From: a virus
Lineage: Duplodnaviria > Heunggongvirae > Uroviricota > Caudoviricetes
IMG/VR virus record: IMGVR_UViG_3300020171_000017
Location: 48,685 to 112,684 of that record
Direction: 5' to 3' (one strand)
Length of the DNA stretch: 64,000 nucleotides
Under the pieces are notes generated by a model. The model was not told the origin of the DNA. It ran no database searches and saw only the letters and a program-made list of their open reading frames with translations. The first letter of the stretch is position 1. Every line of letters starts with the position of its first letter. Below, piece by piece: positions 23,818-64,000 of this stretch. Position numbers and translations under genes: made by a program.

Positions 23818-23833
23818 GTTGTTATTCTTTTAA

Positions 23834-23905: not shown

Positions 23906-23924
23906 AGTCTTAACTTAATATCAG

Positions 23925-24214: not shown

Positions 24215-24218
24215 ATAT

Positions 24219-24692: not shown

Positions 24693-24706
24693 AGTTCCTT
24701 TCTTAG

Positions 24707-24789: not shown

Positions 24790-24798
24790 ATAATTTTT

Positions 24799-24872: not shown

Positions 24873-24877
24873 ATATT

Positions 24878-25396: not shown

Positions 25397-25399
25397 TTC

Positions 25400-26155: not shown

Positions 26156-26172
26156 GTTTATAATCCTTTTAG

Positions 26173-26258
26173 TTAGGCGAGGCAGAGTCGAACTGCCGTT
26201 TCCACCCCTACAAGTTGCAACTTTACGGGTGACGACTTACCGTTAGTCGATCAGCCTA
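26173..26258 (-). tRNA. tRNA-like gene, type-II size, unusual expanded anticodon region
   Basis: T-arm GGCAG-TTCGACT-CTGCC, acceptor AGGC(T)GA/TCGCCT with one bulge, D-arm CGAC-TAACGGTAA-GTCG; stem CACCC/GGGTG encloses 19 nt containing palindrome AAGTTGCAACTT. Confidence 0.4.
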
Positions 26259-26266
26259 AATTTTTA

Positions 26267-26341
26267 TCGGCACAGGAAGACTCGAACTTCCACTATTCAT
26301 CGCCCCAAACGATGCGGTCTACCAATTTGACCAATGTGCCG
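26267..26341 (-). tRNA. tRNA-Pro (UGG)
   Basis: C1-G72 acceptor CGGCACA/TGTGCCG, D-arm GGTC-AAATTGGTA-GACC, anticodon stem CATCG/CGATG loop TTTGGGG, T-arm GGAAG-TTCGAGT-CTTCC. Confidence 0.7.
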
Positions 26342-26686
26342 TTATATCTTTTTATTTCTTCCTAATTTTTTATCAATTTCTAACCTATCAAAACCGTAAT
26401 ATTTATCACCCTTAATAAATGAAGTAGAATTCGATAGATAGACAAGAGAAGATAATAAACTACGTAATTCACAAAATAAACCTTCACTTATATCAAGTTT
26501 TTTACCAATATCAGATTTATCTAAAAATATCTTTAAAGTATTTACAATCACTCTAAATCTTTCTTCAGTTTTAATAGGCAGTACAAATGCCTCATCTATA
26601 GCGTAACCTAGTGCATGAATCTCTTCTGCCTCATCTTTATCGAGTTTCTCACTATCAATATGAATTAATCTAACCTCATCTTTCAT
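26342..26686 (-). CDS. hypothetical protein (114 aa)
   Basis: ORF ends one base from tRNA-Pro; minus-strand operon. Confidence 0.4.
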   Translation of the reverse strand: MKDEVRLIHIDSEKLDKDEAEEIHALGYAIDEAFVLPIKTEERFRVIVNTLKIFLDKSDIGKKLDISEGLFCELRSLLSSLVYLSNSTSFIKGDKYYGFDRLEIDKKLGRNKKI

Positions 26687-26710
26687 TTCTTCATCTCCAT
26701 TTAAAGTAGT

Positions 26711-28288
26711 TCATAATTTATCTTTATTCTGTTCTCTAAATTCTTTCAATTCCTTATCCCGCCTTTCTTCGATTTCTTTAGGAAAGCCACGATTTAAACA
26801 TCTTGGGCAAGCAGCTTCTTTTGTTTTGTTTTTAGGGTCTTGCGTAGTTTGAATATAACCACTACATATTATAACTTCATCCGCAATATAATTTTTGCAC
26901 AATTTTCTAGAAACATAATAACTACACTTTTCCCAATCTTCTTTTTTCATTTTTTCATCTCCATTTTTTTCTTCTACCCACTTCAGATACACTTCTTCAT
27001 TCTCACCTAACTTCAGTTCACCATTAATCACTGCATTTAGCACCATCTCTTTAATCTCACCTACCTGCCTTACCTGACCGAGATTAAAATATCGCATAAT
27101 GGCGTTACCATTTAAGGGCGATTTTGGTGATTCTTTAAAGTTTCGTTGTTCTTCAATACGGCGTTTGAGATCCATGAGAGAATCTAAATGCTTTTTGATT
27201 GAAACGGGATTGTGAGAAGTTATGTCACTTTCACTCAATTGCAATAATTTTCCACAATATTCTCCAGTTTCAAAAATAAAACGCCTAACAGCACTATCTG
27301 AAAAAGATTCGGTGTACGTATTAACACGCATATGATTTTTCACCAGGTATGTGATATCTTTTATCATTTTAGTTGGTAGACCTAATCGCTGTAAGATTGA
27401 GTAAGTCATCCGAGATCCGATTTCATCGTGATCATAAAAATGTATTTTACCATTCTCATTAGAGAAGGTACATTGCTTTCCAATATCGTGAAATAATGCA
27501 CTAAAACGAAGTACTAAATCTTTTGGAGTATTCTTTACAACATCAATTGTATGGAGTAAAGCATCTTTATGGTGAAACTCACTTTCTTGTTTTATAGATT
27601 TTAATGCTACTAATTCAGGTATAAAATAATTTATAAGCCGATACTCAAATAAATCATTGAGAGCAAGATCGACATTATCGGTCATTAATATTTTGTTTAC
27701 TTCGTCTAAAATCCTTTCTTTTGGCAAAATTAACAAACGTTTTGCGCATGATTTTAATGCCATTTTCACTTCTTCACTATATTCAAAACCTAACTTCGCT
27801 CGAAAGCGCACGGCGCGGATTAATCTTAACGGATCGTCAGCGAAAGATTTTCCTGCCTGTATAGGTGTAGAAATTATTTTATTCTTAAGGTGCTCTACGC
27901 CCCCAAATAAATCCTTGATTTCCCTCTTACTATCTAAGCACAAACAATTAATTGTGAAATCCCTTCTATGCAGATCATCCTCTATTGTTTGTCCCCACTC
28001 GACTACGGGGTTCCTATTACTTCGTTGATAAGATATATCCCGCCTATATGTCGTGCACTCCACCTTATATCCATCCACTATCGCACCTACAGTCCCGAAC
28101 GCTATGCCTACGGTGTAAGTTTTATACCCCGCCTTCTGCAATATCTCTAAAGTAACTTCAGGCACGCAGGAAACCGCGAAATCTAAATCTTGAGTTTCGA
28201 GACCTAAAAGTTGATCCCTGCACGCACCGCCGACTAAATATATAGAGTGACCATTCTTACTAAATAACTCAAATATTTTATTTTTCAT
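26711..28288 (-). CDS. cca: tRNA nucleotidyltransferase (CCA-adding enzyme) with HD phosphohydrolase domain
   Basis: GGACRDQLLGLETQDLDFAV head motif; HD motif HHKDALLHT...FSALFHDIGK; 525 aa. Confidence 0.8.
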   Translation of the reverse strand: MKNKIFELFSKNGHSIYLVGGACRDQLLGLETQDLDFAVSCVPEVTLEILQKAGYKTYTVGIAFGTVGAIVDGYKVECTTYRRDISYQRSNRNPVVEWGQTIEDDLHRRDFTINCLCLDSKREIKDLFGGVEHLKNKIISTPIQAGKSFADDPLRLIRAVRFRAKLGFEYSEEVKMALKSCAKRLLILPKERILDEVNKILMTDNVDLALNDLFEYRLINYFIPELVALKSIKQESEFHHKDALLHTIDVVKNTPKDLVLRFSALFHDIGKQCTFSNENGKIHFYDHDEIGSRMTYSILQRLGLPTKMIKDITYLVKNHMRVNTYTESFSDSAVRRFIFETGEYCGKLLQLSESDITSHNPVSIKKHLDSLMDLKRRIEEQRNFKESPKSPLNGNAIMRYFNLGQVRQVGEIKEMVLNAVINGELKLGENEEVYLKWVEEKNGDEKMKKEDWEKCSYYVSRKLCKNYIADEVIICSGYIQTTQDPKNKTKEAACPRCLNRGFPKEIEERRDKELKEFREQNKDKL

Positions 28289-28290
28289 TT

Positions 28291-28716
28291 TTAGAATAAA
28301 AGATTTTGTTCTAACGCTAAATTATATATGTCTTGCATAGGAATTCGACAAAAATTAGGTATTTCTCTAAATTCGTACATAGAAGAATAGATTAACTGAA
28401 TAGCTTCAAATAACCCCACATTTCTCGCAATTAAAGCTAAAAGAGCTATATGTGGACTTCTAGTCACACAACATTGACAATGTATAAATATATCATCAGT
28501 CCCTTTTAACTTTTCATATAATTCATATAAAGGAATATTCATTTTATATAAACTATCACCATCTTTGTAATCTATTTCAATATCGTTATTTCTAAGCATA
28601 CTACATCTTTGATCTGGGTAATCATTTCGCCATATGTGGATTGTTCGCATAATTGAATTACAACATGATTCTTTGTCCCCTAACCAAATATTTTTATTTA
28701 GATAAATTTTTTTCAT
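28291..28716 (-). CDS. cysteine phosphatase (dual-specificity/PTP-like P-loop)
   Basis: IHCQCCVTRSP matches HC-x5-R-S/T catalytic loop; 141 aa. Confidence 0.5.
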   Translation of the reverse strand: MKKIYLNKNIWLGDKESCCNSIMRTIHIWRNDYPDQRCSMLRNNDIEIDYKDGDSLYKMNIPLYELYEKLKGTDDIFIHCQCCVTRSPHIALLALIARNVGLFEAIQLIYSSMYEFREIPNFCRIPMQDIYNLALEQNLLF

Positions 28717-28988
28717 TTTAAAAATAGCTCATGCATTTCTATCTTCCAATCTTTAATTTCATCGAAACTATCAAAACATATTGGATACATTCTGCTATCA
28801 CCTTCTTTTTTTATGCACCAGAAACCTTTGTTCCAACCGCTTTTAATTATCATTTTAGGCGAAAGCTGAAAGTCTGTCTTTCTTACTGATTCAGACACAA
28901 TTAATGTAGTGCCTACTAATTGAAAGTCTGCTGGTAAATCTTTAATTTTAATAGTTTTCATTTCGGGACCTTTCTTTTTGGCTACCAC
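28713..28988 (-). CDS. hypothetical protein (91 aa)
   Basis: overlapping stop/start with phosphatase gene. Confidence 0.35.
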   Translation of the reverse strand: MVAKKKGPEMKTIKIKDLPADFQLVGTTLIVSESVRKTDFQLSPKMIIKSGWNKGFWCIKKEGDSRMYPICFDSFDEIKDWKIEMHELFLK

Positions 28989-29053
28989 ATAAGGATCCGA
29001 TCCTTAATCTTCAGCTTCAGAGGCTGACGAATTACCAGTTATTCGATGTGGTA
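28982..29053 (-). tRNA. tRNA-Gln (CUG)
   Basis: U1-A72 + discriminator G73 (Gln identity), anticodon stem TCAGC/GCTGA loop CTCTGAA, T-stem TAAGG/CCTTA. Confidence 0.7.
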
Positions 29054-29056
29054 ATA

Positions 29057-29251
29057 TTATACAATATAATGCACAAAAGCTTCTATTTTGCCACAATCAC
29101 ATCGATGCATAATTTCATATTGCACATCAAAAAGATATTCATCTAATTTTGCAATAATCTTTTCTAAATGAGAGTGGTTTTTAGCTTTAATCCAACATCC
29201 TGAACGTTCTGTCATTTTTAATCTCCAATCATAGCTACGGGAGATGAGCAC
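29057..29251 (-). CDS. hypothetical protein (64 aa, Cys/His-containing)
   Basis: small ORF between tRNAs. Confidence 0.3.
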   Translation of the reverse strand: MLISRSYDWRLKMTERSGCWIKAKNHSHLEKIIAKLDEYLFDVQYEIMHRCDCGKIEAFVHYIV

Positions 29252-29306
29252 GATTCATCATTAACAGCTTCAAAGGCTGCTTGCCTACCTATTAGCAGAT
29301 CCCGTA
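29235..29306 (-). tRNA. tRNA-Gln (UUG)
   Basis: U1-A72, G73, anticodon stem GCAGC/GCTGT loop CTTTGAA, T-stem GATGA/TCATC (non-canonical T-loop ATCGTGC). Confidence 0.6.
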
Positions 29307-29312
29307 ATTCTG

Positions 29313-29385
29313 TGGGTGCAGAAAGCCTTAAACTTTCAATCTATCGGGTAAGAACCAATTGCTTTATCAATTAAGCTATGCACCC
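29313..29385 (-). tRNA. tRNA-Lys (CUU)
   Basis: acceptor GGGTGCA/TGCACCC, D-arm GCTT-AATTGATA-AAGC, anticodon loop TTCTTAC, T-arm GAAAG-TTTAAGG-CTTTC. Confidence 0.6.
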
Positions 29386-29398
29386 GTTATTTCCTTAA

Positions 29399-29469
29399 TG
29401 AGCGTACCAGAATTCGAATCTGGATAGACACATTAAAAGTGTGTTAATCTGCCCTTGATTTATACGCCC
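29399..29469 (-). tRNA. tRNA-Lys (UUU)
   Basis: acceptor GGGCGTA/TACGCTC, anticodon stem ACACA/TGTGT loop CTTTTAA, T-arm CCAGA-TTCGAAT-TCTGG. Confidence 0.7.
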
Positions 29470-29481
29470 GTTAACTATTAG

Positions 29482-29555
29482 AGGCGATAACTGGATTCGG
29501 ACCAGTGATTGTACTGTTTTGCAGACAGTTCGATTAGCCACTCTCGCACACCGCC
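29482..29555 (-). tRNA. tRNA-Cys (GCA)
   Basis: acceptor GGCGGTG/TATCGCC (two G-U), discriminator U73, anticodon stem ACTGT/ACAGT loop CTGCAAA, T-arm ACTGG-TCCGAAT-CCAGT. Confidence 0.6.
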
Positions 29556-29562
29556 ATAACCT

Positions 29563-29901
29563 TCAATACAACGCCCAACCGCTGCCTTTTTCTTTTCTTG
29601 GTTTACTGCCTTTACCGCCAGATTTTGTGTTATATGTATCGTTATTTTCTATAAAATCTCGGTTAACCAATTCTTGCTCTTTATTCTCCATATCTATTTT
29701 GTTGTTATAGATAAACAAGATCTCTTTCTTAAAGTTATGTATGCCATAATATTTATGGGCATTTTTCATTGTGATGCCAGAACCTTTGTAATCGTCATTT
29801 ACATCTTCGGTCGCATGCTTACCGATGTATATCTTGCTGTTAATCAGATTTGTGATCTTATAGACTATGTAGTATGTCATAATATTTTTAAGCACAGGCA
29901 C
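29563..29901 (-). CDS. GIY-YIG homing endonuclease (stand-alone catalytic domain)
   Basis: YIVYKITNLINSKIYIGKH ... R ... E ... N motifs of GIY-YIG; 112 aa; embedded in tRNA array. Confidence 0.7.
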   Translation of the reverse strand: MPVLKNIMTYYIVYKITNLINSKIYIGKHATEDVNDDYKGSGITMKNAHKYYGIHNFKKEILFIYNNKIDMENKEQELVNRDFIENNDTYNTKSGGKGSKPRKEKGSGWALY

Positions 29902-29946
29902 CAGGACTTTAACCTAGGCCAACTGTTCCAATATTCTTCAACATTA

Positions 29947-30021
29947 GCGCCTCCTGTCGAATTTAAATCGACGATATCTTGATCGACAATCAAGTGCATT
30001 GAATCGCTATGCTAAGGAGGC
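29947..30021 (-). tRNA. tRNA-Asp (GUC)
   Basis: acceptor GCCTCCT/AGGAGGC, G73, D-arm GCAT/ATGC, anticodon stem CTTGA/TCAAG loop TTGTCGA, T-stem GTCGA/TCGAC. Confidence 0.7.
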
Positions 30022-30031
30022 AATTTTCAAG

Positions 30032-30102
30032 TGACGCTACGGGGAATTGGACCCCGACATTCTGGTCGAAAGCCAGATATACTGCCTTTATATGATAGCG
30101 CC
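30032..30102 (-). tRNA. tRNA-Glu (UUC)
   Basis: acceptor GGCGCTA/TAGCGTC, anticodon stem TCTGG/CCAGA loop CTTTCGA, T-stem CGGGG/CCCCG. Confidence 0.65.
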
Positions 30103-30349
30103 ATAAAAACAAAAAAACCGATTCAGTTTTAGTAGTTCGTAGCTTTTAATCTATGCTGCTGATTGCTACTTACTACTTTGTTGAGTCGGTATAATTCGCA
30201 ATCAGCACAGATAGTTTAGGCATAATGCCTGTCGAACATAAAAAGGCTCTATGCCAAAACTTGCGGTTTTGGTTCGGCGTTTCTTGTATCTGTTCTGGCG
30301 TTTTATGTTGTAACATTTTCTATGCTTTCGTTACGATGTGAAATTTTAG

Positions 30350-30421
30350 TAGCGGGTTACGAAATCGAATCGTATTAAAGTTGGTTATGAGCCAACCAAG
30401 ATTCCAAACCTTCCACCCGCA
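30350..30421 (-). tRNA. tRNA-Met (CAU) with unpaired 1:72 (U.U)
   Basis: acceptor (T)GCGGGT/ACCCGC(T), D-stem AAGG/TCTT, anticodon stem GTTGG/CCAAC loop CTCATAA, T-arm TACGA-TTCGATT-TCGTA. Confidence 0.55.
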
Positions 30422-39278: not shown

Positions 39279-39377
39279 AACAACAGGTCATTGCCTGTTG
39301 TGCCACACCTTACCGGACCATACCAAACCTCACAGGGCCCTACCACACCACACCTTACCCCACCCAACCTCACCATA
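39279..39377. repeat. intergenic repeat copy 1: 9-bp hairpin + ~70-nt CA-rich tract
   Basis: AACAACAGG-tcattg-CCTGTTGTG then caccttaccggaccataccaaacctcacagggccctaccacaccacaccttaccccacccaacctcacca. Confidence 0.6.
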
Positions 39378-39382
39378 ATTAT

Positions 39383-39586
39383 TTATTTAGTATTTTTTTC
39401 TTCTTTAATTCTAATTTTTAACCAGACAAGAAAGGCATCAATTATTTCTCTTACTGTCGTCGGTGTTTTATCTATTGAATTAAAAGTAAAACCTTTCTCT
39501 ATATAGTTGTCTCCATACCTATTCTTTAAAATTTCTTGCATAATAAAATTACATGCATTTTCTAAATCTTTAGAGTCTAATTTCAT
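39383..39586 (-). CDS. hypothetical protein (67 aa)
   Basis: small ORF between repeat copies. Confidence 0.35.
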   Translation of the reverse strand: MKLDSKDLENACNFIMQEILKNRYGDNYIEKGFTFNSIDKTPTTVREIIDAFLVWLKIRIKEEKNTK

Positions 39587-39777
39587 TTTCTTCTCGCTAT
39601 AGTCGCTGGCTCTTCTCCATTGACATGCGAATTAGAAATTCTACATTCGTTACAAATACGGTTTTTTATCCTATCATTAGATAGAAATTTCTTTCTGCAT
39701 TTTAAACAAGGTATTTTTATATAACTAGTATCATTTCGACGACCTGGCACAATATTTCTCCTCTTTTAATTAAATTA

Positions 39778-39888
39778 ACAACAAGTCATCGCTTGTTGTG
39801 CCATACCCCACTACACAGGACCTCACCCCACCGCACCTCACCATACCTGACCGAACTTTAATTAACCATACCTCACCACATTCTTTAA
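39778..39888. repeat. intergenic repeat copy 2: hairpin + CA-rich tract
   Basis: AACAACAAG-tcatcg-CTTGTTGTG then ccataccccactacacaggacctcaccccaccgcacctcaccatacctgaccg...cctcaccac. Confidence 0.6.
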
Positions 39889-39906
39889 ATAATTAAGAAT
39901 TAAACC

Positions 39907-40005
39907 AACAACAAGTCATTGATTGTTGTGCCTTACCGCACCAAACCGCACCGTGCACGACCTAACCGAACCTCACCACACCATACCCCACCGCACCAAA
40001 CCTTA
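39907..40005. repeat. intergenic repeat copy 3: hairpin + CA-rich tract
   Basis: AACAACAAG-tcattga-TTGTTGTG then ccttaccgcaccaaaccgcaccgtgcacgacctaaccgaacctcaccacaccataccccaccgcaccaaacc. Confidence 0.6.
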
Positions 40006-40007
40006 AT

Positions 40008-40514
40008 TTATTCCACAACTTTAAATCTCCCAAACTTCGGTCTGTAATCACCAATCCCCTTAACTTTTCCCGCCTCACTAACAATTTCCAATAAAGTTTC
40101 TTTAGACATTCTATCTGGATCAAAAGTTAAGGTGAATTCTAACTCCCAAGTATTCCATCTTGGTCTATGTTTTATGATCCCGTTTCTTTGTATTCTTGCA
40201 AACCGAGAATCAATTTCATCATATTTTTTATTTAAAGGTATCTTCTCTTCCTCACAAAAAGTAGTTGCAACAACTGTCTCTTTTAAGGTGCGTTTCCCTT
40301 TGGCCTTAAAACTTTTTGCTGCTTCACGGATACTAGATTCTATCCAAGTAGACGGTGCGTAATACCCTATTTTCTCATCGTAGTATACTGCATCAATTAC
40401 ATCATCTTCTTTATTATATATATCTACTTTCTTTTTAGATTTATCTCCATCCATATTATATTTATTCATTAATAATGGAGACACTCCTTTGATCTTTACT
40501 TTAATACTTTCCAT
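40008..40514 (-). CDS. hypothetical protein (168 aa)
   Basis: ORF. Confidence 0.4.
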   Translation of the reverse strand: MESIKVKIKGVSPLLMNKYNMDGDKSKKKVDIYNKEDDVIDAVYYDEKIGYYAPSTWIESSIREAAKSFKAKGKRTLKETVVATTFCEEEKIPLNKKYDEIDSRFARIQRNGIIKHRPRWNTWELEFTLTFDPDRMSKETLLEIVSEAGKVKGIGDYRPKFGRFKVVE

Positions 40515-41406: not shown

Positions 41407-41631
41407 TTTTTATTCTCCTTTTTTTGTATTATTGTTGTTTAACTTTAATCCCGCCCTTTTTAATCAAATCATCACGTTTTATTTCTTCGGCTGACTTCTT
41501 CGTCCATTTACCATCTTTTCCTTTATGCCAACCAGCACCCTCGGCGGCTGACCATGCAGTAGCAGAACATATATATCGGTACTGAAACACGCACATTAAT
41601 CATAAAAAAAACGACAAGGAAACTCACACAT

Positions 41632-42651
41632 TTATGTGTGCAGAGGAATTGTCGTCCTCCAGTAATTATAAGAAAGAAATACTAAATCCTTCTTATCTAT
41701 GTTTTGAGCTAATCGTTCTCCTGTCTCTAAATTATGCACACTTAATCTATCTTTACTACTGCCACCGACATAACAAATACCGTATTTAGGATGTGTTACA
41801 AGGCTGCCGCGTTTTAATCCAAGTGACATTGTGCTGCCATAATCTTTTCTTATGCCGCCTTTTGAGAAATTAAAACGATGAAGTTGCCTCCTGTGAAACT
41901 GAATTGGAATTAATCTTGTAATTTCTTTGTTTTCTGGAACAGTACCACCTCGCACTGAACTCCAAGCCAATGACCAAGAGTCCACATTGTGCGCGGAAAA
42001 AATTTCGGCTGATTTATTACCTGTCTTTATAAGTCCTAACTCCTGTCTTATTTGGTATGTATCGTAACCAGATTTTAATTCTACTTTTGCAATTTTTTCA
42101 AGTTCTTTATAGAACCACTTCTTACCGACTTCGAGTGGAGAAAAAGATGTATTCCATCTTTTAGCGTTCTTAAATGTAGGTGCTTTTATATCTTCTACTA
42201 CAAATGTCTTAATAGGAAACAACTTCGCGAGAATGACTGCAATCCTTAACTTCGCCTGCCAACGTGCTTTTGTACTTGGTGCTAAAAAGGTTGTTTGAGA
42301 TCTATTGTTTTTATTCTTCCTGCATGGAGTTGTCCTATATCTCCGTACTTTTCTCGCGTTTCTCCTTGTTTCTACCGCTTCTTTTACCCATGAAACAGAA
42401 TTACTTAAAATGTTTAAGTAAGTATGTAATTCTGATTTCACCGTGAACGCTTCTCTCTTGCTGCCAGGATCGATTCCTACCACAATGTCCTGCGTTACAC
42501 CATCAGTACGCTGGATTAACTTGATATAAAAAATCCCAGCCTTGAAACGGCGTTTTGCTCTGTTCTTTTTTATCAGTTCGTTCGCGCGATAATTATTAGT
42601 CGGCATTAATGGTTTCCCTGTCGCGCTGATCACTGGTACAGACTTCTGCAT
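41632..42651 (-). CDS. isrB: IsrB-like RNA-guided nickase homolog (HNH-less IscB; PLMP domain + split RuvC)
   Basis: N-terminal GKPLMPT (PLMP motif), RuvC-I VVGIDPGSKREAF, Arg-rich bridge-helix-like RRNARKVRRYR, ~340 aa, no HNH. Confidence 0.6.
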   Translation of the reverse strand: MQKSVPVISATGKPLMPTNNYRANELIKKNRAKRRFKAGIFYIKLIQRTDGVTQDIVVGIDPGSKREAFTVKSELHTYLNILSNSVSWVKEAVETRRNARKVRRYRTTPCRKNKNNRSQTTFLAPSTKARWQAKLRIAVILAKLFPIKTFVVEDIKAPTFKNAKRWNTSFSPLEVGKKWFYKELEKIAKVELKSGYDTYQIRQELGLIKTGNKSAEIFSAHNVDSWSLAWSSVRGGTVPENKEITRLIPIQFHRRQLHRFNFSKGGIRKDYGSTMSLGLKRGSLVTHPKYGICYVGGSSKDRLSVHNLETGERLAQNIDKKDLVFLSYNYWRTTIPLHT

Positions 42652-47757: not shown

Positions 47758-48600
47758 TTAAAATAATTCCACTTCTTTCTCAACCTTAAAATCAAAATTC
47801 GTAACCAATATTTCTTGTGTTATGTTTTTTGTATCTTTTGAATAACCACCAACCTTAGCATTATAGTTTTTATTTATTTGTATTAAATTATATTTATTCG
47901 CAAAAGTTTTTAATGCTTCATTTATTTCACCATTTTTATTTATAATATTAGATAATGCCCATTTACATTCTAAAGTTTTTAACCAATCAAGAAATTTCCG
48001 TTCTTCTTTAATATCCCATTCTTTCGCATGGTAACAATCATTTGACAGCAAATACGGCGGATCACAATACACAAATGTATTTTCTATACCTACTATTTTA
48101 TCATAACTTCTCGCATAAATATTAAAGTTTATATTGTTAAGTTTATCCCTTAATTCGTTAGTTAAATATTTTAATGGCTGTGCCTTACGTTTTCCCCAAG
48201 TTTGGTTAAATTCATTAGATTGATTAAACCGCGCTAAATTGTTTGTACATGCCCCTAATAACACAAATAATAATACCGATTTTAATATCGATTTCTCGCA
48301 ATCGTTATATCTCTGCCGTAATTTATTGTATTCCACCTGATTGGTCTTAATCAAATCTAAATCTATTGCAGCCAATATCTCATTAAATTTATCCCAATCG
48401 TTCTTTAAGTATAAGAAAAGGCCTATTACTGCTTCATTCTTATCCGAAATCTCATAATGTACGGCTTTAGTATTTAAACTAAATACCGCGGAACCGCAAA
48501 ACGGCTCGATTATTCTGTCACATTTAGAAGTAATATAGGCATCTTGTATGATAGGTAATAAATCTTTCTTATTGCCTGCCCACTTAAAAGGGTAGATCAT
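47758..48600 (-). CDS. dam: DNA adenine methyltransferase (Dam family)
   Basis: PFKWAGNKKDLLPII, EPFCGSAVF, VYCDPPY motifs. Confidence 0.8.
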   Translation of the reverse strand: MIYPFKWAGNKKDLLPIIQDAYITSKCDRIIEPFCGSAVFSLNTKAVHYEISDKNEAVIGLFLYLKNDWDKFNEILAAIDLDLIKTNQVEYNKLRQRYNDCEKSILKSVLLFVLLGACTNNLARFNQSNEFNQTWGKRKAQPLKYLTNELRDKLNNINFNIYARSYDKIVGIENTFVYCDPPYLLSNDCYHAKEWDIKEERKFLDWLKTLECKWALSNIINKNGEINEALKTFANKYNLIQINKNYNAKVGGYSKDTKNITQEILVTNFDFKVEKEVELF

Positions 48601-48779
48601 CGGTTAACCACCTTAATTTGCCTTAAATTTAAGCCGCAATTGGCACAAAACTGCCAGTTTAAGCCTGTTGCCTGCTTGCATATAGTACATAGCCGTAACG
48701 CTTGATCTTGCACACTGCCACACTGATGGCAGAAATTCGCGGTATCGGCTAGATTGTAGGTGCAATTGGCGCAGGTCAT
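48597..48779 (-). CDS. double zinc-ribbon protein (60 aa)
   Basis: CANC...CHQCG...CTICK...CANCG. Confidence 0.4.
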   Translation of the reverse strand: MTCANCTYNLADTANFCHQCGSVQDQALRLCTICKQATGLNWQFCANCGLNLRQIKVVNR

Positions 48780-48784
48780 AAAAA

Positions 48785-49513
48785 TTAACTACCTATCTTA
48801 AATTCTGGTTCACTCCAATCAGTTTCCCAATCAAGTGGTTCTGAAAGTGCAAAAATTTGGCAAAATTCGTTATAATATGCTTCTGCAATCTTATTATTTT
48901 TAATCAAAACAACATTTTCAAGACTGTTTTCAGCATTTTTTGTTAAATTATATGAACCCGTCCAAACTTCTTGATAATTAATTATTGGCTCAATAAAATT
49001 ATCGCCTATTTGTTTACCTTCAATATAATTACTAAACACTAAAAATTTATTATGCATTCTTGGAAATGCAGGTTTCTTATCCCTATTGTAGTTGCCTATG
49101 CAACGAATAGCAGCATTATTACCTGTATCTAACATATATGATAATTCACTTAATAATCCACCATATCCATCTAACCTAAAAAATACAGATAATCCATTAT
49201 ATGCTTTTCTTAAATCATTTTTCCAACTGTTACCAGCATTCAAATCAGACCGCAAAAAATCTTCTTTCTGAACTATAATGCTGATATGTTCAACTTTCGA
49301 AAATGCTTTAATAATCTCAAAATCTGTCAGCCAGGCGATACAACCTACTATATAATTATATTGACTAATTTTCTGAAGAAGCAATTCTTTATGCCCCCTG
49401 AAAATAATCGAAACATTTGCATTAATATCCCTAATAGAATTGTCTATTAATTTTCTATTTGGTCCTTCTCCATTCACTATTTTTGCTCGATTCAAATCAA
49501 CATTTTTTGACAT
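48785..49513 (-). CDS. PLD-family (HKD) nuclease
   Basis: RMHNKFLVFSN ... WTGSYNLT (HxK...GSxN). Confidence 0.55.
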   Translation of the reverse strand: MSKNVDLNRAKIVNGEGPNRKLIDNSIRDINANVSIIFRGHKELLLQKISQYNYIVGCIAWLTDFEIIKAFSKVEHISIIVQKEDFLRSDLNAGNSWKNDLRKAYNGLSVFFRLDGYGGLLSELSYMLDTGNNAAIRCIGNYNRDKKPAFPRMHNKFLVFSNYIEGKQIGDNFIEPIINYQEVWTGSYNLTKNAENSLENVVLIKNNKIAEAYYNEFCQIFALSEPLDWETDWSEPEFKIGS

Positions 49514-49640
49514 TTTTTATCTCACTTTTTATACTCATTTTACATATTTCTGTAAATATATATATCTGTATTTCTCATTTTTGTTAATAACTCTGTTGAT
49601 AACCACTATAATTATATGAAACTACATAAGAAAACTACTA

Positions 49641-49812
49641 TTGCTATCTAATCTTCTATATAGAAGATTGAATCTGCGCGGTTCTCACTGCCCCCAAAAT
49701 TCCTGACACCACTTTTTTTTTTTTTCAGCCAATTTTTTTTTTCAGCCACAACTTTTTGGGAGAAGTGATCAGACCCCGCAGATTCAATCTTCTATATAGA
49801 AGATTGAATCGA
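49641..49812. repeat. long inverted repeat with poly-T core (candidate origin / regulatory element)
   Basis: TCTTCTATATAGAAGATTGAATCTGCGCGG ... CCGCAGATTCAATCTTCTATATAGAAGATTGAATC; arms include palindrome TCTTCTATATAGAAGA; spacer has T13, T9 and 2x TTCAGCCA. Confidence 0.55.
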
Positions 49813-49969
49813 ATTATATAATAACTATTTGCAATTAAATTATTTAACATAGATATTAACAGGATTATTAACTTTTTCGCTTTTTGTCTAAATTTATGGA
49901 TATAACCATTTTTATTTTTTCGCTCATTCTTATAATTTAACACAGTTATCTTCCTATTCACTTATATTG

Positions 49970-50716
49970 CTATTCTATTATCACTAATCCACACAATTTA
50001 TTGATAGAATCCAGGTATATTTTTATCTCATTTATATCATCTTTAGTCAATCTAAACCATTCACCTTTAACTCTTTTATCTTTATATTTATTATGTAATA
50101 TTTTTTCTATCTTAAAAGGATTTTTAAGTCTAATTGAATAGCACAAATTTATGTCTTCTGCCAATAAATAATTTAACATTTTCATTCGTGTATTTAAATC
50201 TTTTGAAGCGCCTATTTTTATGTTACCGCTCATTTCTAATAGATATAAATAACCTATATCATCAAAAATATTGGCGTTATTTTTTTGTTTAGGGTCTTTT
50301 ATAGCATTTAAATATTCTCTGTTTTGTTCTATTATAGATAAACCATGCTTTTTTTTGAATAAAATAGGACAATGAAAATCACTTTTTAGAAAAAAAAGAG
50401 TCGTTTCTAAATCTTCATTTTTAATAAAATAATAACAAATTTCATTAGTTTGTTGATCCCTCTTCCTTCGGCATAAACCTATCTTTCTAAAGGTATTTAT
50501 ATACCTTAAAAAAGTACTCTTTGTCATATATCCAATCTTTTCTTTTACAGTTATAAAAGAAAGTTTTTTATCTTTTATAAGCAGATCCAACACTTTTGAT
50601 AATTGTTTTATAAAATGCCCTTTTTGCCGAGAATGCGCGAAATTTGAAACCATTTCTTTTATAGCATCAGGTATACAACACTTTTTCTCTATTTTATCCT
50701 TCTTTAAGGTCATCAT
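49970..50716 (-). CDS. T5orf172/MUG113 (GIY-YIG-like) domain protein with N-terminal DNA-binding region
   Basis: YLYLLEMSGNIKIGASKDLNTRMKMLN C-terminal motif. Confidence 0.45.
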   Translation of the reverse strand: MMTLKKDKIEKKCCIPDAIKEMVSNFAHSRQKGHFIKQLSKVLDLLIKDKKLSFITVKEKIGYMTKSTFLRYINTFRKIGLCRRKRDQQTNEICYYFIKNEDLETTLFFLKSDFHCPILFKKKHGLSIIEQNREYLNAIKDPKQKNNANIFDDIGYLYLLEMSGNIKIGASKDLNTRMKMLNYLLAEDINLCYSIRLKNPFKIEKILHNKYKDKRVKGEWFRLTKDDINEIKIYLDSINKLCGLVIIE

Positions 50717-53700
50717 CTATATCTATAAGATTTTCTATCTTTTTATTAATATTAAAAGTAATTTCAGTCTCTTTATTATCTTTAACCTTATTAAACTCTA
50801 CTTTTTTATTTTCTGTTATAGAAGCCCCTTCAGCAAATCGTTTAAAAAAAGATACGCCAGCAGCAGATAATCTAAACCCTTTTGCTACTGTTTTAATTAA
50901 ATTATGAGCATAAAACATCTTTAAAATATTTTTAACATCTTCTCTATCATAACCGAGTATTTCTTCTAAAATATTTTTACCAAAAATAGGTGTTTTTACT
51001 AATGTTTCTGCAAGCATTTGATTATCACTGATAGTTAGCATCATTTTATATGCGTTATCATATTCAGTTTCCATTAAAGCAGTTTTTTGTGTTTTGCTAA
51101 AATTAAAATAATCTAAAGAATGACTATCATATTGGCTTTCTAAAAACCATTTTACAAATTCAACATGTTCTTTATTTACATGAACTATATTAAAATCTTC
51201 TTCGGTTGAAAAAAGCCTGACTGCCGTAGCCACACTTAATCTAGCAATTTTATTTCTTTGATCTGCCGGCTCTACTAAAGGTATTAAAGAACTATACTTT
51301 TGTGACATTAATTTAGAAGCTTCAAGAATCTCTTTCTCTGCCTCTTCTGTAATATGAATTTGATCTGCTTTTCTAGTCCAAGCCCAAAGAATAAGGTTTT
51401 TACATGCTGTTGAAATATAAACATGTTCTACCTTTTCTTTATCAGAAATTAATTGATGAATAACATCATTTCCAACATCACCAGATTTAACAGCTATAGC
51501 TAAATCAAACCTTCTAATATCTTCTGAACGTTTAAAAATTTCGGTTATTGCTTTAACTGGATAAGGATATTCGCTAAGTGGATGCCCTGATTTTGTATTA
51601 CTCATCCAAATTATTCTTGTTCTTGCATGAGTTTTTGCTGGCATAGGCCCATTTATAGCATCTGCAACTCCTTCCGAACGCATATCTGTTAATTTTGAAA
51701 GTTCTTCTGGATCTATCCCGCTGGCTTCATCAATAATTACAAGCCTTCTATCATTCCTCGGTATTGTACCAAAAGAAACTGACCATCTTTCACCTATTTT
51801 ATGCCAAGTAAATGCTAACCCTGTTCTACGCGCACCTTCACCATTAATACGATAACCAAAATTATAATGCCGACAAATCCTCTCTATACCAACGCTTTTT
51901 CCCTGTCCAGAATCCCCTAATACAAACAATTCAGTCCAACCACGCTTTAAAAATTCTTTCTGAAAATAAAAATTTAATACTGAATGATATACAAGATCAA
52001 TCGCAATAAATAATGGCGTTCTTTGCCAAATATGATGTACGTTAAATTCAAAATCTTTATGAATTTCAAAAAATTTCTCTTTTACAGATTGATTTTGTTT
52101 TTTTTTGAATATTGAGAGTTCTTTGGCCTTTCTTTCATCAAATTTAAAACTATTTAAAGAAGTTTCCGCAGAACTGTAATCAGAAAATAGATGTATTGCC
52201 TGCTGTGTTTTAGGCGCCGGATATGTATAACAAGATATTTCTAATTCTTGGTTTATAGGCATACCATGCCCGATATAATACGCTTTTCTCGTAACAAAGT
52301 CATCATTGCCTTCAGTATAAGAAATTTGACTATCAAGCTCTGGTGTTAATTCTAATTCTTCTAAATTACCTTCTTCTAACGTAGATACGGTTATTTTAGC
52401 GCAATTTTTCTCTCCAAACATTTGTTTTAAAGCTTGATTTTTTTGTGTTTCAGAACATTGTATGCATTGTAAAAGTATCGGGTGCCTTTCTGTTAAAACA
52501 ACTTCAAACCTCCCGCCATGTTTTATTAATTTACAATTGTTACATTTATTGCCTTCTTTATCTAATTCTGGTTTACATAATAATTGTATTCTTTTTGGAA
52601 TTATATACGGCAAAGTATCTTTGCCTGTCACTAATACTTTAGTTTTTAATTTTTTACCTCTGTAAATAGCATCAGAAGCTTCAGCTAAATGCACAATAAT
52701 TTCTCGTTCAGGTTTTTGATCTTCTTCATTAGCAATTGCACATTGTTCAAATTCACATTTTATTTCATCACTTAAACTACGCATAACAGAACAAATAAAA
52801 TGATAATTTTCGTTTGAAAGTATTGCCCTTATACAACCGATAGTAGATGCTTTCAATTTACGTTCATCATGCGTACTGGTAAAATTCTTTGGAGTACGCT
52901 GCGCCCAAGGTATTAAAAGCGCCTCTATCTCTATTTCAGAGAAACCTTGATCTTTAAAATAACACGCCAATACCATTGTTGCTAAATTACGCGAACCGGA
53001 TTTTTTAATATGATTTTCTAATAAATCTTTAACACATACTGCCATTTCACCTGATTTTTGAATTAAATTTATCGGTTTTAATTTCTCAATTCTTTCTTGC
53101 CCTTTAAATACATCAACGAAATGTTTATAGAATATCGACGCTGGTTCTACAATAGCTACATCACGTAAATCTTCATCTTGCCATAACTGGCCGCGAGGTT
53201 CTTTTGCTAGTTTGGTAATTTCATCAGCGCTTTTATTAAGATCATCATGATATAATTCAATTTTAAATAAACCTGTACTTTGATGTATTGAATCAAGTAA
53301 TCTTAATTGCCTGGGTTTAGAATAAATTGAAGCTGAATCTAGTGTTTTTAATTCTAAATACGATTCTAAATATAATGCTATTAATTTAAATATATGATTG
53401 AGTTTTAATTCTGGAGAAATATCTAAAGTGCTAGGGTGCACTATTATATGGAAACCTTTCTTACCACTAAAAAAAAGCCTTACATGCGATTGGTGTATAC
53501 AAAGACCTTTAACAAAAAAATCAATTATTTTTCGGGCGTCTTCTTTAACAAAATCTAAAAGAAGTTTATCTTGTGTGTCTAAATCAAAATATAACGGGCC
53601 ATATATAAGTTCACTATCGTAATCTTTTGATTTATTAGGTGAAGCAAATTGTTGTATTGTTGCGAAAACATTGTAGTTTTCAGCTTTCTTTTTTAATATA

Positions 53701-53804
53701 TGTAAATCAGTTAGTTTATACCTTTTCCAAGGAGTACCTTTCTCACTGCCTTTTTTCTGATAATAACCATCTACATAAACAAATTGAGTTTCATAAGATT
53801 CCAT
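50694..53804 (-). CDS. primase-polymerase (AEP) / P-loop helicase fusion
   Basis: N-terminal AEP motifs YFDLD and SGKKGFHIIV; Walker A VLGDSGQGKS; 1036 aa. Confidence 0.6.
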   Translation of the reverse strand: MESYETQFVYVDGYYQKKGSEKGTPWKRYKLTDLHILKKKAENYNVFATIQQFASPNKSKDYDSELIYGPLYFDLDTQDKLLLDFVKEDARKIIDFFVKGLCIHQSHVRLFFSGKKGFHIIVHPSTLDISPELKLNHIFKLIALYLESYLELKTLDSASIYSKPRQLRLLDSIHQSTGLFKIELYHDDLNKSADEITKLAKEPRGQLWQDEDLRDVAIVEPASIFYKHFVDVFKGQERIEKLKPINLIQKSGEMAVCVKDLLENHIKKSGSRNLATMVLACYFKDQGFSEIEIEALLIPWAQRTPKNFTSTHDERKLKASTIGCIRAILSNENYHFICSVMRSLSDEIKCEFEQCAIANEEDQKPEREIIVHLAEASDAIYRGKKLKTKVLVTGKDTLPYIIPKRIQLLCKPELDKEGNKCNNCKLIKHGGRFEVVLTERHPILLQCIQCSETQKNQALKQMFGEKNCAKITVSTLEEGNLEELELTPELDSQISYTEGNDDFVTRKAYYIGHGMPINQELEISCYTYPAPKTQQAIHLFSDYSSAETSLNSFKFDERKAKELSIFKKKQNQSVKEKFFEIHKDFEFNVHHIWQRTPLFIAIDLVYHSVLNFYFQKEFLKRGWTELFVLGDSGQGKSVGIERICRHYNFGYRINGEGARRTGLAFTWHKIGERWSVSFGTIPRNDRRLVIIDEASGIDPEELSKLTDMRSEGVADAINGPMPAKTHARTRIIWMSNTKSGHPLSEYPYPVKAITEIFKRSEDIRRFDLAIAVKSGDVGNDVIHQLISDKEKVEHVYISTACKNLILWAWTRKADQIHITEEAEKEILEASKLMSQKYSSLIPLVEPADQRNKIARLSVATAVRLFSTEEDFNIVHVNKEHVEFVKWFLESQYDSHSLDYFNFSKTQKTALMETEYDNAYKMMLTISDNQMLAETLVKTPIFGKNILEEILGYDREDVKNILKMFYAHNLIKTVAKGFRLSAAGVSFFKRFAEGASITENKKVEFNKVKDNKETEITFNINKKIENLIDIDDDLKEG

Positions 53805-54230: not shown

Positions 54231-54452
54231 TTATTTTAATGATTCTCTATATTTTATAATCAGATTTTTCCAAGTTTCTAAAGTAATAACATCTTTGTAA
54301 TCTATAATTAAATATGGGTCACCTGAACCAAATGATTTTACATTTGTTCTTATATTTATATTTGGGAAATAGTTTCTTGCAAAATCATTAAAAATCTTTT
54401 CATATTGAAATTTCACCTTTTCGTAATGCCTGTTTATCTTCTTCTGTGGCAT
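54231..54452 (-). CDS. hypothetical protein (73 aa)
   Basis: small ORF. Confidence 0.3.
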   Translation of the reverse strand: MPQKKINRHYEKVKFQYEKIFNDFARNYFPNINIRTNVKSFGSGDPYLIIDYKDVITLETWKNLIIKYRESLK

Positions 54453-54972
54453 ATGGAGAGGTTACTATTTCTTTACCTTGATAATATGTACCTTGTCCAA
54501 CATGCGCTCTTTTTGCCGCCTCTTTTTGAGTAGCAGAAACCGCTTCTAACGAATTCGTTAGAAGCGGTTTTCCACCATGCATTCCTTTACCACTAGTTGC
54601 CTGATTTTTCTTCGCTCTTTCCGCTATCAATGGCTCAATCAATACTTGCAATTCTATTCTTTGAAATGGTTGTAAATTCCGCTTACCAATTTGATTCTCA
54701 ATTATCCATATCTTCGCATCATCTCTTGATTCAATACTTTTAATATCAATTGTATCAAATTTAATATTATTCTTTTGACATATTTTATACCTATTATGAC
54801 CATCTAGTAATATATTTTCCCATAAAGATAATGGTTCACGACAACCATCTCTAATAATATTCTGTTCTAATTTACTATATTCTTCTTCTAAAAGATCAGG
54901 CATTATTTTACTAAATTCTTTATCAATTATTATTTCTTTCATTTTATCTCCATTCCAAAATTTAATTTCCAT
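54400..54972 (-). CDS. ParB-like nuclease domain protein
   Basis: EPLSLWENILLDGHNRYKI (DGHxR-type ParB N-terminal motif). Confidence 0.5.
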   Translation of the reverse strand: MEIKFWNGDKMKEIIIDKEFSKIMPDLLEEEYSKLEQNIIRDGCREPLSLWENILLDGHNRYKICQKNNIKFDTIDIKSIESRDDAKIWIIENQIGKRNLQPFQRIELQVLIEPLIAERAKKNQATSGKGMHGGKPLLTNSLEAVSATQKEAAKRAHVGQGTYYQGKEIVTSPYATEEDKQALRKGEISI

Positions 54973-56375: not shown

Positions 56376-56699
56376 TCAAGGCATAGTTTCTTCGGTTTTA
56401 GGCGTTTCTGGCGCGTTTGGGGCTTGTTTTTGGCTATTATTCTGTAACGTGGCGAGTTGCATATGCAGGTTGTTAACTTCATTTTTTAATACGGCGATAT
56501 CGGAAGATAAATTAGTATTATCTTCAAGTATCTTGTTATATGCATCAATCACTTCATCCAGCTTAAGCACAATGTCCTTAATATTAATCTCAAGGTAATC
56601 TTTATCCACCACTTTTATAGTATGGCTAAAGTAGATAAGGTTACCTGTCATTAAGTTAATACGGTAGTAACTTGATTCCTTATTTATTAATTTATCCAT
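56376..56699 (-). CDS. coiled-coil protein (107 aa)
   Basis: heptad-rich, Q/N/L-rich. Confidence 0.35.
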   Translation of the reverse strand: MDKLINKESSYYRINLMTGNLIYFSHTIKVVDKDYLEINIKDIVLKLDEVIDAYNKILEDNTNLSSDIAVLKNEVNNLHMQLATLQNNSQKQAPNAPETPKTEETMP

Positions 56700-56840
56700 T
56701 TTTTTACTCCTTTTATATATATATTTTATTTTATTAATTAATTATTATTATTATATATATCCTTTTTCTTAAAAGGCTTTTCAGCTTACACCTCTAGACA
56801 CTCAGAAGCGTGCACTTTTTACAACTATTTTTAACGAACC

Positions 56841-62728: not shown

Positions 62729-62953
62729 CTAGATTAAACTTTTCTCGTCGATTTCTTCGATTTCAACTAAAGCTAATTGCCTTTGATACTCTAAAATAGA
62801 TTTTTGTGCGGTTGCAATGTATGTTTGCTGGGCAATAATTCCTTGAAGTATAGATTTTATTCTTGTTTTCACTTGAGCTTCTTTTTCCGCTCTTAATTCA
62901 GCGATTACCTCATTTTTTAATTCATAAAAAAAACGGCAAGGAAACTCACACAT
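62729..62953 (-). CDS. coiled-coil protein (74 aa)
   Basis: small ORF. Confidence 0.3.
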   Translation of the reverse strand: MCEFPCRFFYELKNEVIAELRAEKEAQVKTRIKSILQGIIAQQTYIATAQKSILEYQRQLALVEIEEIDEKSLI

Positions 62954-64000
62954 TTATGTGTGTAGAGGAATTGCCGTCCTCCAATAATTATAAGAAAGAA
63001 ATACTAAATCCTTCTTATCTATGTTTTGAGATAATCGTTCTCCTGTCTCTAATTTATGGACACTTAATTTATTATTACTACTGCCTCCGACATAACAAAC
63101 ACCGTATTTAGCGTGTGTTACAAGACTGCCTCGTTTTAGTCCAAGTGACATTGTACTACCGTAATTTTTTCTTATGCCTCCTTTCGAGAAATTAAAATAA
63201 TGAAGTTGTCTCCTATGAAACTGGAGAGGGATTAATCTTGTAATTTCTTTGTTCTCTGGAATAGTATTACCACGCGCCAAACTCCAAGCTAACGCCCAAG
63301 AATCCACATTGTGCGCGGAAAAAACTTCAGCTGATTTATTCCCTGTTTTTACAAGCCCTAGTTCCTCCCTTATTAAATATGTATCATAACCAGATTTCAA
63401 TTCTACTTTCGCAATTTTCGCGAGTTCGTTATAGAACCACTTTTTACCTACTTCTAAAGGAGAAAAAGATATGTTCCATCTTTTAGCATTCTTAAATGTA
63501 GTTGCTTTTATATCTTCTATTACGAATATCTTGATAGGAAATAACTTCGCGAGAATGACCGTAATCCTTAATTTCGCCTGCCATCGTGCTTTTGTGCTAG
63601 GCGCTAAAAAAGTTGTTTTCGATCTGTTGCTTTTGTTTTTTCTACATGGTGTAGTCCTATTTCTTCTTGTTCTTCTCGCATTTCTCCTTATTTCTACTGA
63701 TTTTTTTACCCATGAAACAGAGTTACTTAAAACATTCAAGTAAGTATGTAATTCTGATTTCACCGTGAATGCTTCTCTTTTGCTGCCAGGATCGATCCCT
63801 ACCACAATGTCCTGCATTACACCATCAGTACGCTGGATTAGTTTGATATAAAAAATCCCTGCTTTGAAACGGCGTTTCGCTTTGTTCTTTTTTATCAGTT
63901 CGTTCGCGCGATAATTCGTAGTCGGCATCAATGGTTTCCCTGTCGCGCTGATTACTGGTACAAACTTCTGCATTTGTTACTCCTTACTATTTAGTTAAGT
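62920..64000 (-). mobile_element. IsrB-type IS element, copy B (truncated by window end)
   Basis: 339-aa ORF ~94% identical to copy A; same 3' hairpin with compensatory change (ACGGCAA/TTGCCGT vs ACGACAA/TTGTCGT); upstream 27 nt match copy A leader. Confidence 0.55.
62954..63973 (-). CDS. isrB: IsrB-like protein, copy B
   Basis: GKPLMPT, VVGIDPGSK, RRNARRTRRNR; 339 aa. Confidence 0.6.
   Translation of the reverse strand: MQKFVPVISATGKPLMPTTNYRANELIKKNKAKRRFKAGIFYIKLIQRTDGVMQDIVVGIDPGSKREAFTVKSELHTYLNVLSNSVSWVKKSVEIRRNARRTRRNRTTPCRKNKSNRSKTTFLAPSTKARWQAKLRITVILAKLFPIKIFVIEDIKATTFKNAKRWNISFSPLEVGKKWFYNELAKIAKVELKSGYDTYLIREELGLVKTGNKSAEVFSAHNVDSWALAWSLARGNTIPENKEITRLIPLQFHRRQLHYFNFSKGGIRKNYGSTMSLGLKRGSLVTHAKYGVCYVGGSSNNKLSVHKLETGERLSQNIDKKDLVFLSYNYWRTAIPLHT

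Follow-up and report, generated by a model that had tools for sequence, protein, structure and literature searches.

The window analyzed here is a 64,000-nucleotide stretch of a Caudoviricetes genome (positions 48,685 to 112,684 of IMG/VR record IMGVR_UViG_3300020171_000017), and at window positions 49645–49815 it contains a near-perfect palindrome of 171 bp that can fold, in its entirety, into a single hairpin. The element lies downstream of the genes for a fusion of an archaeo-eukaryotic primase (AEP) with an MCM-type helicase and for a predicted winged-helix protein. Judged by its sequence and by that of its relatives, it is real, non-random and evolutionarily maintained, and its nearest analogues are the stem-loop origins that have been proposed for replicons with an AEP primase, a kind of origin that is known but poorly documented. 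Our tentative reading, in which our confidence falls slightly short of even, is that a replication origin comparable to the pRN1 stem-loop or to ssiA/ssiB of RSF1010 lies here and has the element as its structured core. We favor this reading because the element sits beside the primase-helicase and winged-helix genes, is bracketed by converging repeats, has kept its hairpin shape among relatives and has published precedents. To our knowledge, the origins of large uncultured phages have almost never been mapped, and we know of no account of how phage AEP-primase/MCM-helicase fusions choose their start sites.

The palindrome consists of the following parts, given in window coordinates with the strand where one applies; L013 and L017 are related loci that are described below.

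49645–49815, no strand: the whole palindrome, composed of outer arms, GC clamps, an asymmetric internal loop, an inner stem and an A/T-tract loop.
49781–49810, no strand: the gene-proximal arm, a perfect 30-bp palindrome, GATTCAATCTTCTATATAGAAGATTGAATC, found by repeat and palindrome searches.
49645–49674, no strand: the distal arm, which holds a perfect 20-bp palindrome at 49650–49669.
49675–49780, no strand: the core between the arms, 106 bp with 43% GC in intergenic DNA of 21% GC, forming an imperfect inner stem and a loop.
49713–49749, plus strand: T13 followed by a tandem 17-mer, T10CAGCCA(A/C), present twice; this is the apical loop of the hairpin.
49765–49775, minus strand: box A, GGTCTGATCAC, identical in L013; the CUGA side of the internal loop.
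49678–49687, minus strand: box B, TGAGAACCGC, identical in L013 and L017; it lies opposite box A in the hairpin.

The initial annotation, made from the letters alone, had described a pair of inverted repeats around a poly-T-rich spacer of about 95 bp. The pair is real, with the sequence as described, and a repeat search identified 49645–49815 as the longest local inverted repeat of the window, with arms at 49639–49682 and 49773–49816 (44 nt, 86% complementary, 90 nt apart). The 16-bp palindrome said to be present in both arms, TCTTCTATATAGAAGA, is indeed there, and a scan of the window finds it in these two places only, even when up to three mismatches are allowed. The description of the spacer needs small corrections. 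The T tracts are present, but most of the region is stem, as the arms extend inward through the GC clamps as an imperfect stem and leave a truly unpaired center of only ~37 nt within the 43% GC core. The first tract is T13 as reported, while the second is T10 rather than T9, and these are the two longest homopolymers of the window; the reported duplication is likewise genuine, its unit being the 17-mer listed above.

The arms are further related as direct repeats, since the 25-mer at 49650–49674 is an exact direct copy of 49786–49810. This 25-mer, AATCTTCTATATAGAAGATTGAATC, occurs exactly twice in the window, with starts 136 bp apart at 49650 and 49786, and shuffled sequences lead one to expect no such pair. 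Besides the two arms the window holds only one perfect palindrome of at least 20 bp, and the longest seen in 100 shuffles was 22 bp. On the gene strand, box A lies on the 5′ arm and box B on the 3′ arm, and the two face each other to give a CUGA/GA internal loop; the resulting small asymmetric motif, GGTCTGATCAC facing GTGAGAACC, has not changed between the window and L013. The single GATC of the element (49767–49770) falls inside box A. Folded with DNA parameters, the entire element forms a single hairpin of ~55 pairs and an A/T-tract loop of 37 nt, at −41 kcal/mol (z −10.6).

A long hairpin is found at the same junction in the related loci L013–L016, L025 and L029, the primases of which are 85%, 73% and 62% identical to that of the window, respectively. 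L013–L016 are syntenic with the window (PLD protein 73% identical), and the intergenic regions of the window and L013 are colinear, with conserved flanks and an element that is 57% identical in an ungapped alignment. When the 55 stem pairs are compared between these two phages, 29 are the same, 13 have changed on both sides and still pair, five have changed on one side and still pair, and eight are broken. The outer arms are 97–100% identical within a genome and only ~67% identical between genomes. Their center-to-center spacing is 136 bp, ~13 helical turns, in both phages, and boxes A and B are unchanged despite the turnover of the arms around them. The near-perfect match of the arms would be kept by selection for pairing and/or by homogenization through template switching, and template switching between the arms of inverted repeats is a known homogenizing route (PMC8604942). 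By this comparison of sequences, something resists homogenization at boxes A and B, for which we offer no explanation.

The hairpins of the relatives share a shape more than a sequence. That of L013 has arms of 36 nt (97% complementary, 90 nt apart) and folds at −76.4 kcal/mol; each arm by itself forms a stem of 12 bp whose 8-nt loop is asymmetric, and since one arm is an inverted copy of the other, the same hairpin appears on opposite strands. L025 carries a hairpin of ~145 nt in which the arms are not self-palindromic and, as in the window, a lone GATC is present on one arm only. The hairpin of L029, an IMG/VR sequence, spans 300 nt and includes 47 perfect pairs (z −12.6). In L026 the inverted repeat is weaker and encloses an A/T-tract spacer, and the truncated L017 contig retains only the 3′ box B and one arm hairpin. 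Spaced inverted repeats of like strength are nearly absent from the 90-odd other loci fetched, and none comparable was found in 79 distant primase relatives (31–39% identity). The downstream neighbor differs among the relatives, being a PLD, HNH or zinc ribbon gene, and therefore the element travels with the primase and winged-helix module and not with the PLD gene.

The genes that border the element are as follows.

50694–53804, minus strand: AEP primase fused to an MCM-type helicase, 1036 residues, assigned by domain matches.
49970–50716, minus strand: 248-residue T5orf172/MUG113 protein, the gene of which overlaps the primase stop codon.
48785–49513, minus strand: PLDc_2 protein, assigned by a domain match.

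All local genes are on the minus strand, in the order primase-MCM, T5orf172 protein, a 456-bp gap with the element, PLDc_2, double zinc ribbon (DZR) and Dam-class methylase, and these gene calls agree with the initial annotation, which had placed the repeats between the PLD-nuclease and T5orf172/primase-helicase genes. The element lies 160 bp past the winged-helix gene and 885 bp past the stop codon of the primase-MCM gene, on the downstream side. The primase part matches the AEP small-subunit domain (E 1.5e-5), and the helicase part is of the MCM P-loop type, not SF3. The N-terminal ~135 residues of the T5orf172 protein form a predicted winged-helix (MarR/HxlR-like) domain that is kept after the primase gene in all relatives, while only this phage and L013 have the T5orf172/MUG113 domain at the C-terminus; the winged-helix protein is translationally coupled to the AEP-primase/MCM-helicase. 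The matches that define the winged helix are weak but consistent (PDB 2d1h, E 0.005; HTH_24, E 4e-4), and a structure model of the N-domain (pLDDT 66, core 75–88) has winged-helix topology and matches MarR/HxlR regulators (E ~5e-3). With four relatives among 1.84 billion proteins the family is tiny, and therefore no deep alignment was available and the model is of moderate quality. The window is part of a large phage; its source contig is 135.5 kb long, and the window itself carries 18 tRNA genes and a transfer-messenger RNA gene on the minus strand at 21275–30421 (the latter at 22373–22772, with the tag peptide ADENQRLLASAEDIVAPIFAGDPVFA). A blastn search of GenBank phages found no DNA-level relative of the window. 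The primase-MCM gene of the window lacks an intein, and a LAGLIDADG intein is present in the corresponding genes of L027 (6001–10425), L028 (523–4947) and L029 (5001–9286).

On both sides the hairpin is flanked by short repeats that point toward it, and next to these, upstream of the PLD gene, is a conserved leader.

49582–49603, plus strand: a pair of iteron-like 10-mers, TGTTAATAAC and TGTTGATAAC, that lie 12 bp apart and are directed toward the hairpin, kept in L013 and L017.
49840–49873, minus strand: three iteron-like 10-mers, AGTTAATAAT, TGTTAATATC and TGTTAAATAA, with a 12-bp period and directed toward the hairpin, kept in L013.
49514–49605, minus strand: conserved leader upstream of the PLD gene, with an extended −10-like sequence, TGTAAAAT.

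The 10-mers start at 49582 and 49594 on the plus strand and at 49861, 49849 and, for a weaker copy, 49873 on the minus strand, so that two on one side and two to three on the other converge on the hairpin; the first and third minus-strand copies were recognized by eye. Three of the 17 near-matches to TGTTAATAAC in the window fall within 280 bp. Motifs of the GTTAAT type are seen again in L025 and, in L029, within the arms. Only the 24–41 bp between the 10-mers and the hairpin are AT-rich. The leader probably serves, to judge by its sequence, as promoter and 5′ untranslated region of the next operon. Its ~85 nt before the PLD start codon are near-identical in the window (49514–49605), L013 (9910–10000) and L017 (95–185), while the encoded proteins are only 71–73% identical.

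The closest precedent is plasmid pRN1, in which replication depends in cis on a stem-loop of ~100 nt downstream of the AEP primase-helicase gene and is abolished when the stem-loop is deleted; together with the replication operon, the stem-loop suffices (PMC4234260). Among pRN plasmids the stem-loop's structure and its flanks are conserved and its sequence is not, and similar stem-loops have been predicted 3′ of the replication genes of Bordetella phages BIP-1 and BPP-1 (PMC4234260). The phage element resembles this arrangement in being a large non-coding stem-loop, of 171 nt, downstream of an AEP primase-helicase gene, in carrying GTG/CAC motifs in its stem, and in belonging to a module with a predicted winged-helix DNA-binding function and a small repressor-like protein. 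It further resembles it in having a kept structure, a diverged sequence and conserved flanks, as seen in the 13 compensatory pairs and in the L025 and L029 hairpins. Unlike in pRN1, the winged helix is a separate 135-residue domain, fused to T5orf172 in this phage, and the hairpin is longer, with self-palindromic arms and flanking 10-mers.

Two further systems share single features with the element. The RSF1010 primase has an AEP-like fold, and the iterons near ssiA and ssiB lie on one side only. The oriV of RSF1010 contains these two 40-nt inverted repeats, which are used by its primase (PMC8567376). The element would present a similar picture, with two potentially hairpin-forming arms arranged as an inverted repeat, one per strand, but it has no sequence similarity to RSF1010, its 10-mers lie on both sides, and a priming role of its arms is putative. 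In the pathogenicity islands of Staphylococcus aureus (SaPIs), the origin lies directly downstream of primase-helicase genes and has opposed short repeats that are read by a winged helix (PMC9371898). The 10-mers match the pri-rep-ori arrangement of SaPIs and other phage-inducible chromosomal islands in number and polarity, as there are at least two per side, in opposite orientation around a center and downstream of the rep genes; the motif is short and the assignment tentative. The center of the SaPI origin is AT-rich and melts, whereas here it is a hairpin of 43% GC, and the SaPI repeats are penta- or hexanucleotides rather than 10-mers with a 12-bp period.

In an origin of this kind, the winged-helix protein and/or the primase-helicase would bind the converging 10-mers or the palindromic arms, and the AT-rich flanks would open. 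Each strand would then fold into the same hairpin, as its sequence permits, since each arm is self-complementary and an inverted copy of the other, and therefore both strands present the same hairpin. Finally, the helicase would assemble and the AEP primase would start synthesis outward on both strands. A more ambitious version of this proposal, which we consider quite improbable as a whole, is that the locus represents a new origin module for AEP-primase/MCM replisomes: a self-homogenizing palindrome that would offer the same priming hairpin on each strand, with a one-arm GATC bulge that could be read by the primase-helicase or the phage Dam, and with losses by slippage that would give a subpopulation altered in replication. 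Whatever its details, the locus is a compact and testable origin candidate of ~300 bp of DNA and two proteins, with a natural deletion allele as control, and if the reading is true it would extend the stem-loop origin idea of pRN1 from a small archaeal plasmid to MCM-type phage replisomes.

The deletion allele came to light in exact-protein look-ups, by which this phage was recovered from two further assemblies, an ENA contig and a Logan assembly. Over 20.7 kb the ENA contig (L001/L003) matches the window at 100.000% identity with one difference, the absence of 136 bp.

49650–49785, no strand (equivalently 49675–49810): the 136 bp absent from the alternative allele, with the breakpoint inside the 25-bp repeat.

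In the ENA contig the gap between the T5orf172 and PLD genes is thereby 320 bp and reads ...ATTC GATTCAATCTTCTATATAGAAGATT AGATAGC..., with a single copy of the 25-mer. In the Logan assembly, one contig ends ...ATTCGATTCAATCTTCTATATAGAAGATT and another begins GATTCAATCTTCTATATAGAAGATTAGATA, and these ends are the two k=31 graph branch nodes expected if the reads hold both alleles. The three assemblies may derive from one read set, and independence of the samples is not claimed. Taken alone, this pattern could have arisen by insertion with duplication of the flanks or by deletion between direct repeats. Judged from the hairpins of the relatives, the ancestral state is the filled one, and the empty allele is best read, from its breakpoint, as the product of slippage or recombination between the 25-bp repeats, aided by the hairpin, either in vivo or during library preparation; contigs alone cannot separate the two. 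Strong hairpins bracketed by direct repeats are prone to precise deletion, and slippage or recombination between the palindromic arms would remove exactly these 136 bp and so give the second allele. Because the arms are perfect palindromes in this phage, they are also 25-bp direct repeats. In L013, in contrast, the arms are inverted and not direct copies, and therefore the direct repeat of the window is a by-product of its palindromic arms. The arm repeats thus appear to mediate a precise deletion; the packaging role suggested in the initial annotation has no support.

These data bear on the origin reading from both sides. The proposal of an origin, which the initial annotation had listed first among its candidates, is supported by position, converging repeats, conservation of the hairpin and precedents; composition, skew and the deleted allele, among other points, weigh against it. 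The core is a 43% GC island in 21% GC DNA and is not a classic unwinding element. By nearest-neighbor stability it falls anywhere from the 18th to the 94th percentile of the window, according to the window size used, and its duplex is of average to high stability; an easily melted unwinding element can be ruled out for the core on these grounds. The GC-skew analysis that the initial annotation had proposed as a check shows no inflection at 49.7 kb, and the only switch, at ~20–21 kb, coincides with a flip in gene orientation. There is no enrichment of DnaA boxes. The iteron-like motif is a short one, two copies of which were identified by eye, and the helicase is of the MCM type, whereas that of pRN1 belongs to SF3. 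In L027/L028 and L109 (primase 59–60% identical) there is no intergenic gap and no element at the junction. Lastly, the 136-bp deletion in a phage that is otherwise 100% identical over 20.7 kb means either that the hairpin is dispensable or that the allele is defective or an artefact, and if the allele is viable it argues against a strict need for the hairpin of the kind seen in pRN1. On the assumption that a large phage has several origins or recombination-driven replication, any single origin would be dispensable.

The strongest competitor, unlikely in our estimate but to be taken seriously, is an operator or control region, in which the arms and/or the 10-mers would be bound by the MarR-like winged-helix protein to regulate or insulate the PLD-DZR-Dam operon, possibly through looping of the 136 bp between the arms. 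The predicted fold of the upstream winged-helix protein is closest to MarR/HxlR/ArsR repressors, which bind palindromic operators, and each arm is dyad-symmetric. The arm spacing of ~13 helical turns in the window and L013 would suit a loop, although common ancestry without insertions or deletions explains equal spacing as well. The strongly conserved promoter-like leader lies just downstream, and an element that can be lost suits a regulator better than a sole origin. What an operator leaves without a purpose is the 55-pair hairpin with its GC clamps and compensatory changes in the inner stem. Moreover, the window and L013 have identical recognition helices, yet the arms differ at about one third of positions, and the arms of L025 are not self-palindromic.

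We regard as improbable that the element is selfish or neutral, i.e., a foldback element resembling a miniature inverted-repeat transposable element (MITE) that would have inserted into the AT-rich spacer of this control region and since been inherited vertically, with occasional loss by precise excision or deletion. In favor of this view, it shares with bacterial MITEs such as the Correia elements of Neisseria a length of 130–170 bp, terminal inverted repeats, a hairpin, a possible TA duplication and a presence/absence polymorphism, and its 43% GC is foreign to the surroundings. Presence and absence are clean, and the flanks allow two readings, a duplication of 25 bp or one of TA in the middle of a 20-bp palindrome; with the 136 bp removed, the region resembles a tidy set of repeats around an AT-rich spacer. 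Its distribution among relatives is patchy, and a 7-bp direct repeat, GAGTATC, lies beside the L025 hairpin. Against a mobile element stand its single copy in the window, which covers 64 kb of the 135.5-kb source contig, and its constant junction, and no further copy was found with the patterns tried: four pattern scans of IMG/VR and blastn searches of GenBank phages, together with PLSDB plasmids, yielded none, a gapped terminal-repeat pattern matched GTDB species genomes at three unrelated GC-rich sites only, and a 20-mer scan of JGI metagenomes gave five unrelated matches only. PLD homologues of below 60% identity lie in unrelated contexts and are uninformative. In addition, the elements of the window and L013 are homologous and colinear, their boxes are under purifying selection, and the flanking arms of L013 are inverted, so that L013 has no target-site duplication. 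A related comparison is with unstable long palindromes and quasipalindromes, which the element resembles in the homogenization of its arms and in the precise deletion between 25-bp repeats; that model covers change and loss, not persistence at one junction or the asymmetric boxes. In this respect the locus is a clean natural case of a long palindrome that evolves in concert and can be lost through direct repeats. Should the element turn out to be a regulator site or a foldback element instead of an origin, its interest would be ordinary.

That the element acts as RNA, be it an RNase III processing site, a small structured RNA, a non-canonical terminator or a 5′ hairpin that stabilizes the mRNA of the PLD operon, seems to us about as improbable as a foldback element, though a few observations would fit. 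In AT-rich DNA, RNA genes typically show up as GC-rich structured islands. The window and L013 both have a −10-like TATAAT/TATATT immediately 5′ of the base of the hairpin, and the asymmetric internal loop, which is conserved, is reminiscent of RNA loops that bind proteins. With RNA parameters the hairpin folds at −75.2 kcal/mol on the gene strand and at −64.8 kcal/mol on the other (z about −11), and the gene strand is slightly better folded in three of the four phages, the exception being L029, in which the opposite strand folds better. G·U pairs, however, number only one to five per hairpin and are equally frequent on both strands in the four phages, and therefore the palindrome appears to be kept at the DNA rather than the RNA level; this is the reading that the sequences favor. 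The outer arms are perfectly Watson–Crick over 29–47 bp, which exceeds what an RNA would need, and the hairpin is the only one of its kind in 64 kb, whereas processing sites and terminators usually recur. No Rfam family reached its gathering threshold in the window, L013, L025 or L029, which rules out a known RNA family, and the best scores for the window hairpin were far below threshold (25.9 versus 150 bits for a plant miRNA model and 19.3 versus 35 bits for CRISPR-DR31). There is no intrinsic terminator in 48500–51000, the nearest U-rich run being 14 nt past the stem.

That the 136-bp insert or the deletion allele is an assembly or library artefact is very unlikely and concerns the deletion allele only: the three assemblies, at 100% identity, may be one read set and hairpins flanked by direct repeats are prone to polymerase jumping in library preparation, but the homologous hairpins of independent relatives make the insert real and the Logan contigs end exactly at the two expected branch points.

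Several other candidates were rejected. The many copies of a generic terminator that the initial annotation had named as counter-evidence were not encountered; the palindrome is unique in the window and has no U tail, and it differs from what looks like a typical bidirectional terminator of this phage. That structure, at 20579–20644, is an imperfect 66-bp palindrome with flanking A/T runs between convergent genes, at the switch of GC skew and gene orientation. A hammerhead ribozyme or kink-turn was considered for the CUGAU/AGAA loop, and by inspection the core motifs do not fit. A coding role was discarded as the 78-residue open reading frame (ORF) at 49725–49961 is broken by stops in L013. 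A CRISPR mini-array is ruled out by a spacer of 106–111 nt that is itself a hairpin, versus the 30–40 nt usual between repeats of 25–37 nt, and by the inverted repeats of L013. A protelomerase or telomere-resolution site, suggested by the TATATA-centered perfect palindrome, was dismissed given its two copies, the non-palindromic arms of L025 and the lack of a supporting gene among those seen.

Other palindromes and repeats were noted in the course of this work. The longest perfect palindrome of the window, the 34-bp AAACCGCTTCTAACGAATTCGTTAGAAGCGGTTT, lies at 54537–54570 inside a minus-strand ORF (54400–54972); a Logan contig starts exactly there, the palindrome is absent from L013, and it has AACCGC in common with box B. 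In L025 a 20-bp perfect palindrome, AAAGAACCTCGAGGTTCTTT, is found at 4459–4478 inside the primase gene. The least stable DNA of the window at every window size tried is a TA-rich segment at 56650–56770, which is less stable than the hairpin region. Seven copies of a 106–115-nt repeat, 60–73% identical and spaced by 117–213 nt, occupy 6846–7839, the lowest-GC part of the first 10 kb, and dense repeats with a 5-nt period (ACCNN) at 39307–40015 probably encode a repetitive protein on the minus strand. A 300-nt direct repeat connects 41600–41899 and 62922–63221 (91% identity), and the RRXRR-domain gene region at 62917–64000 matches a second copy at 88% over 1084 nt, therefore an endonuclease-like gene has been duplicated.

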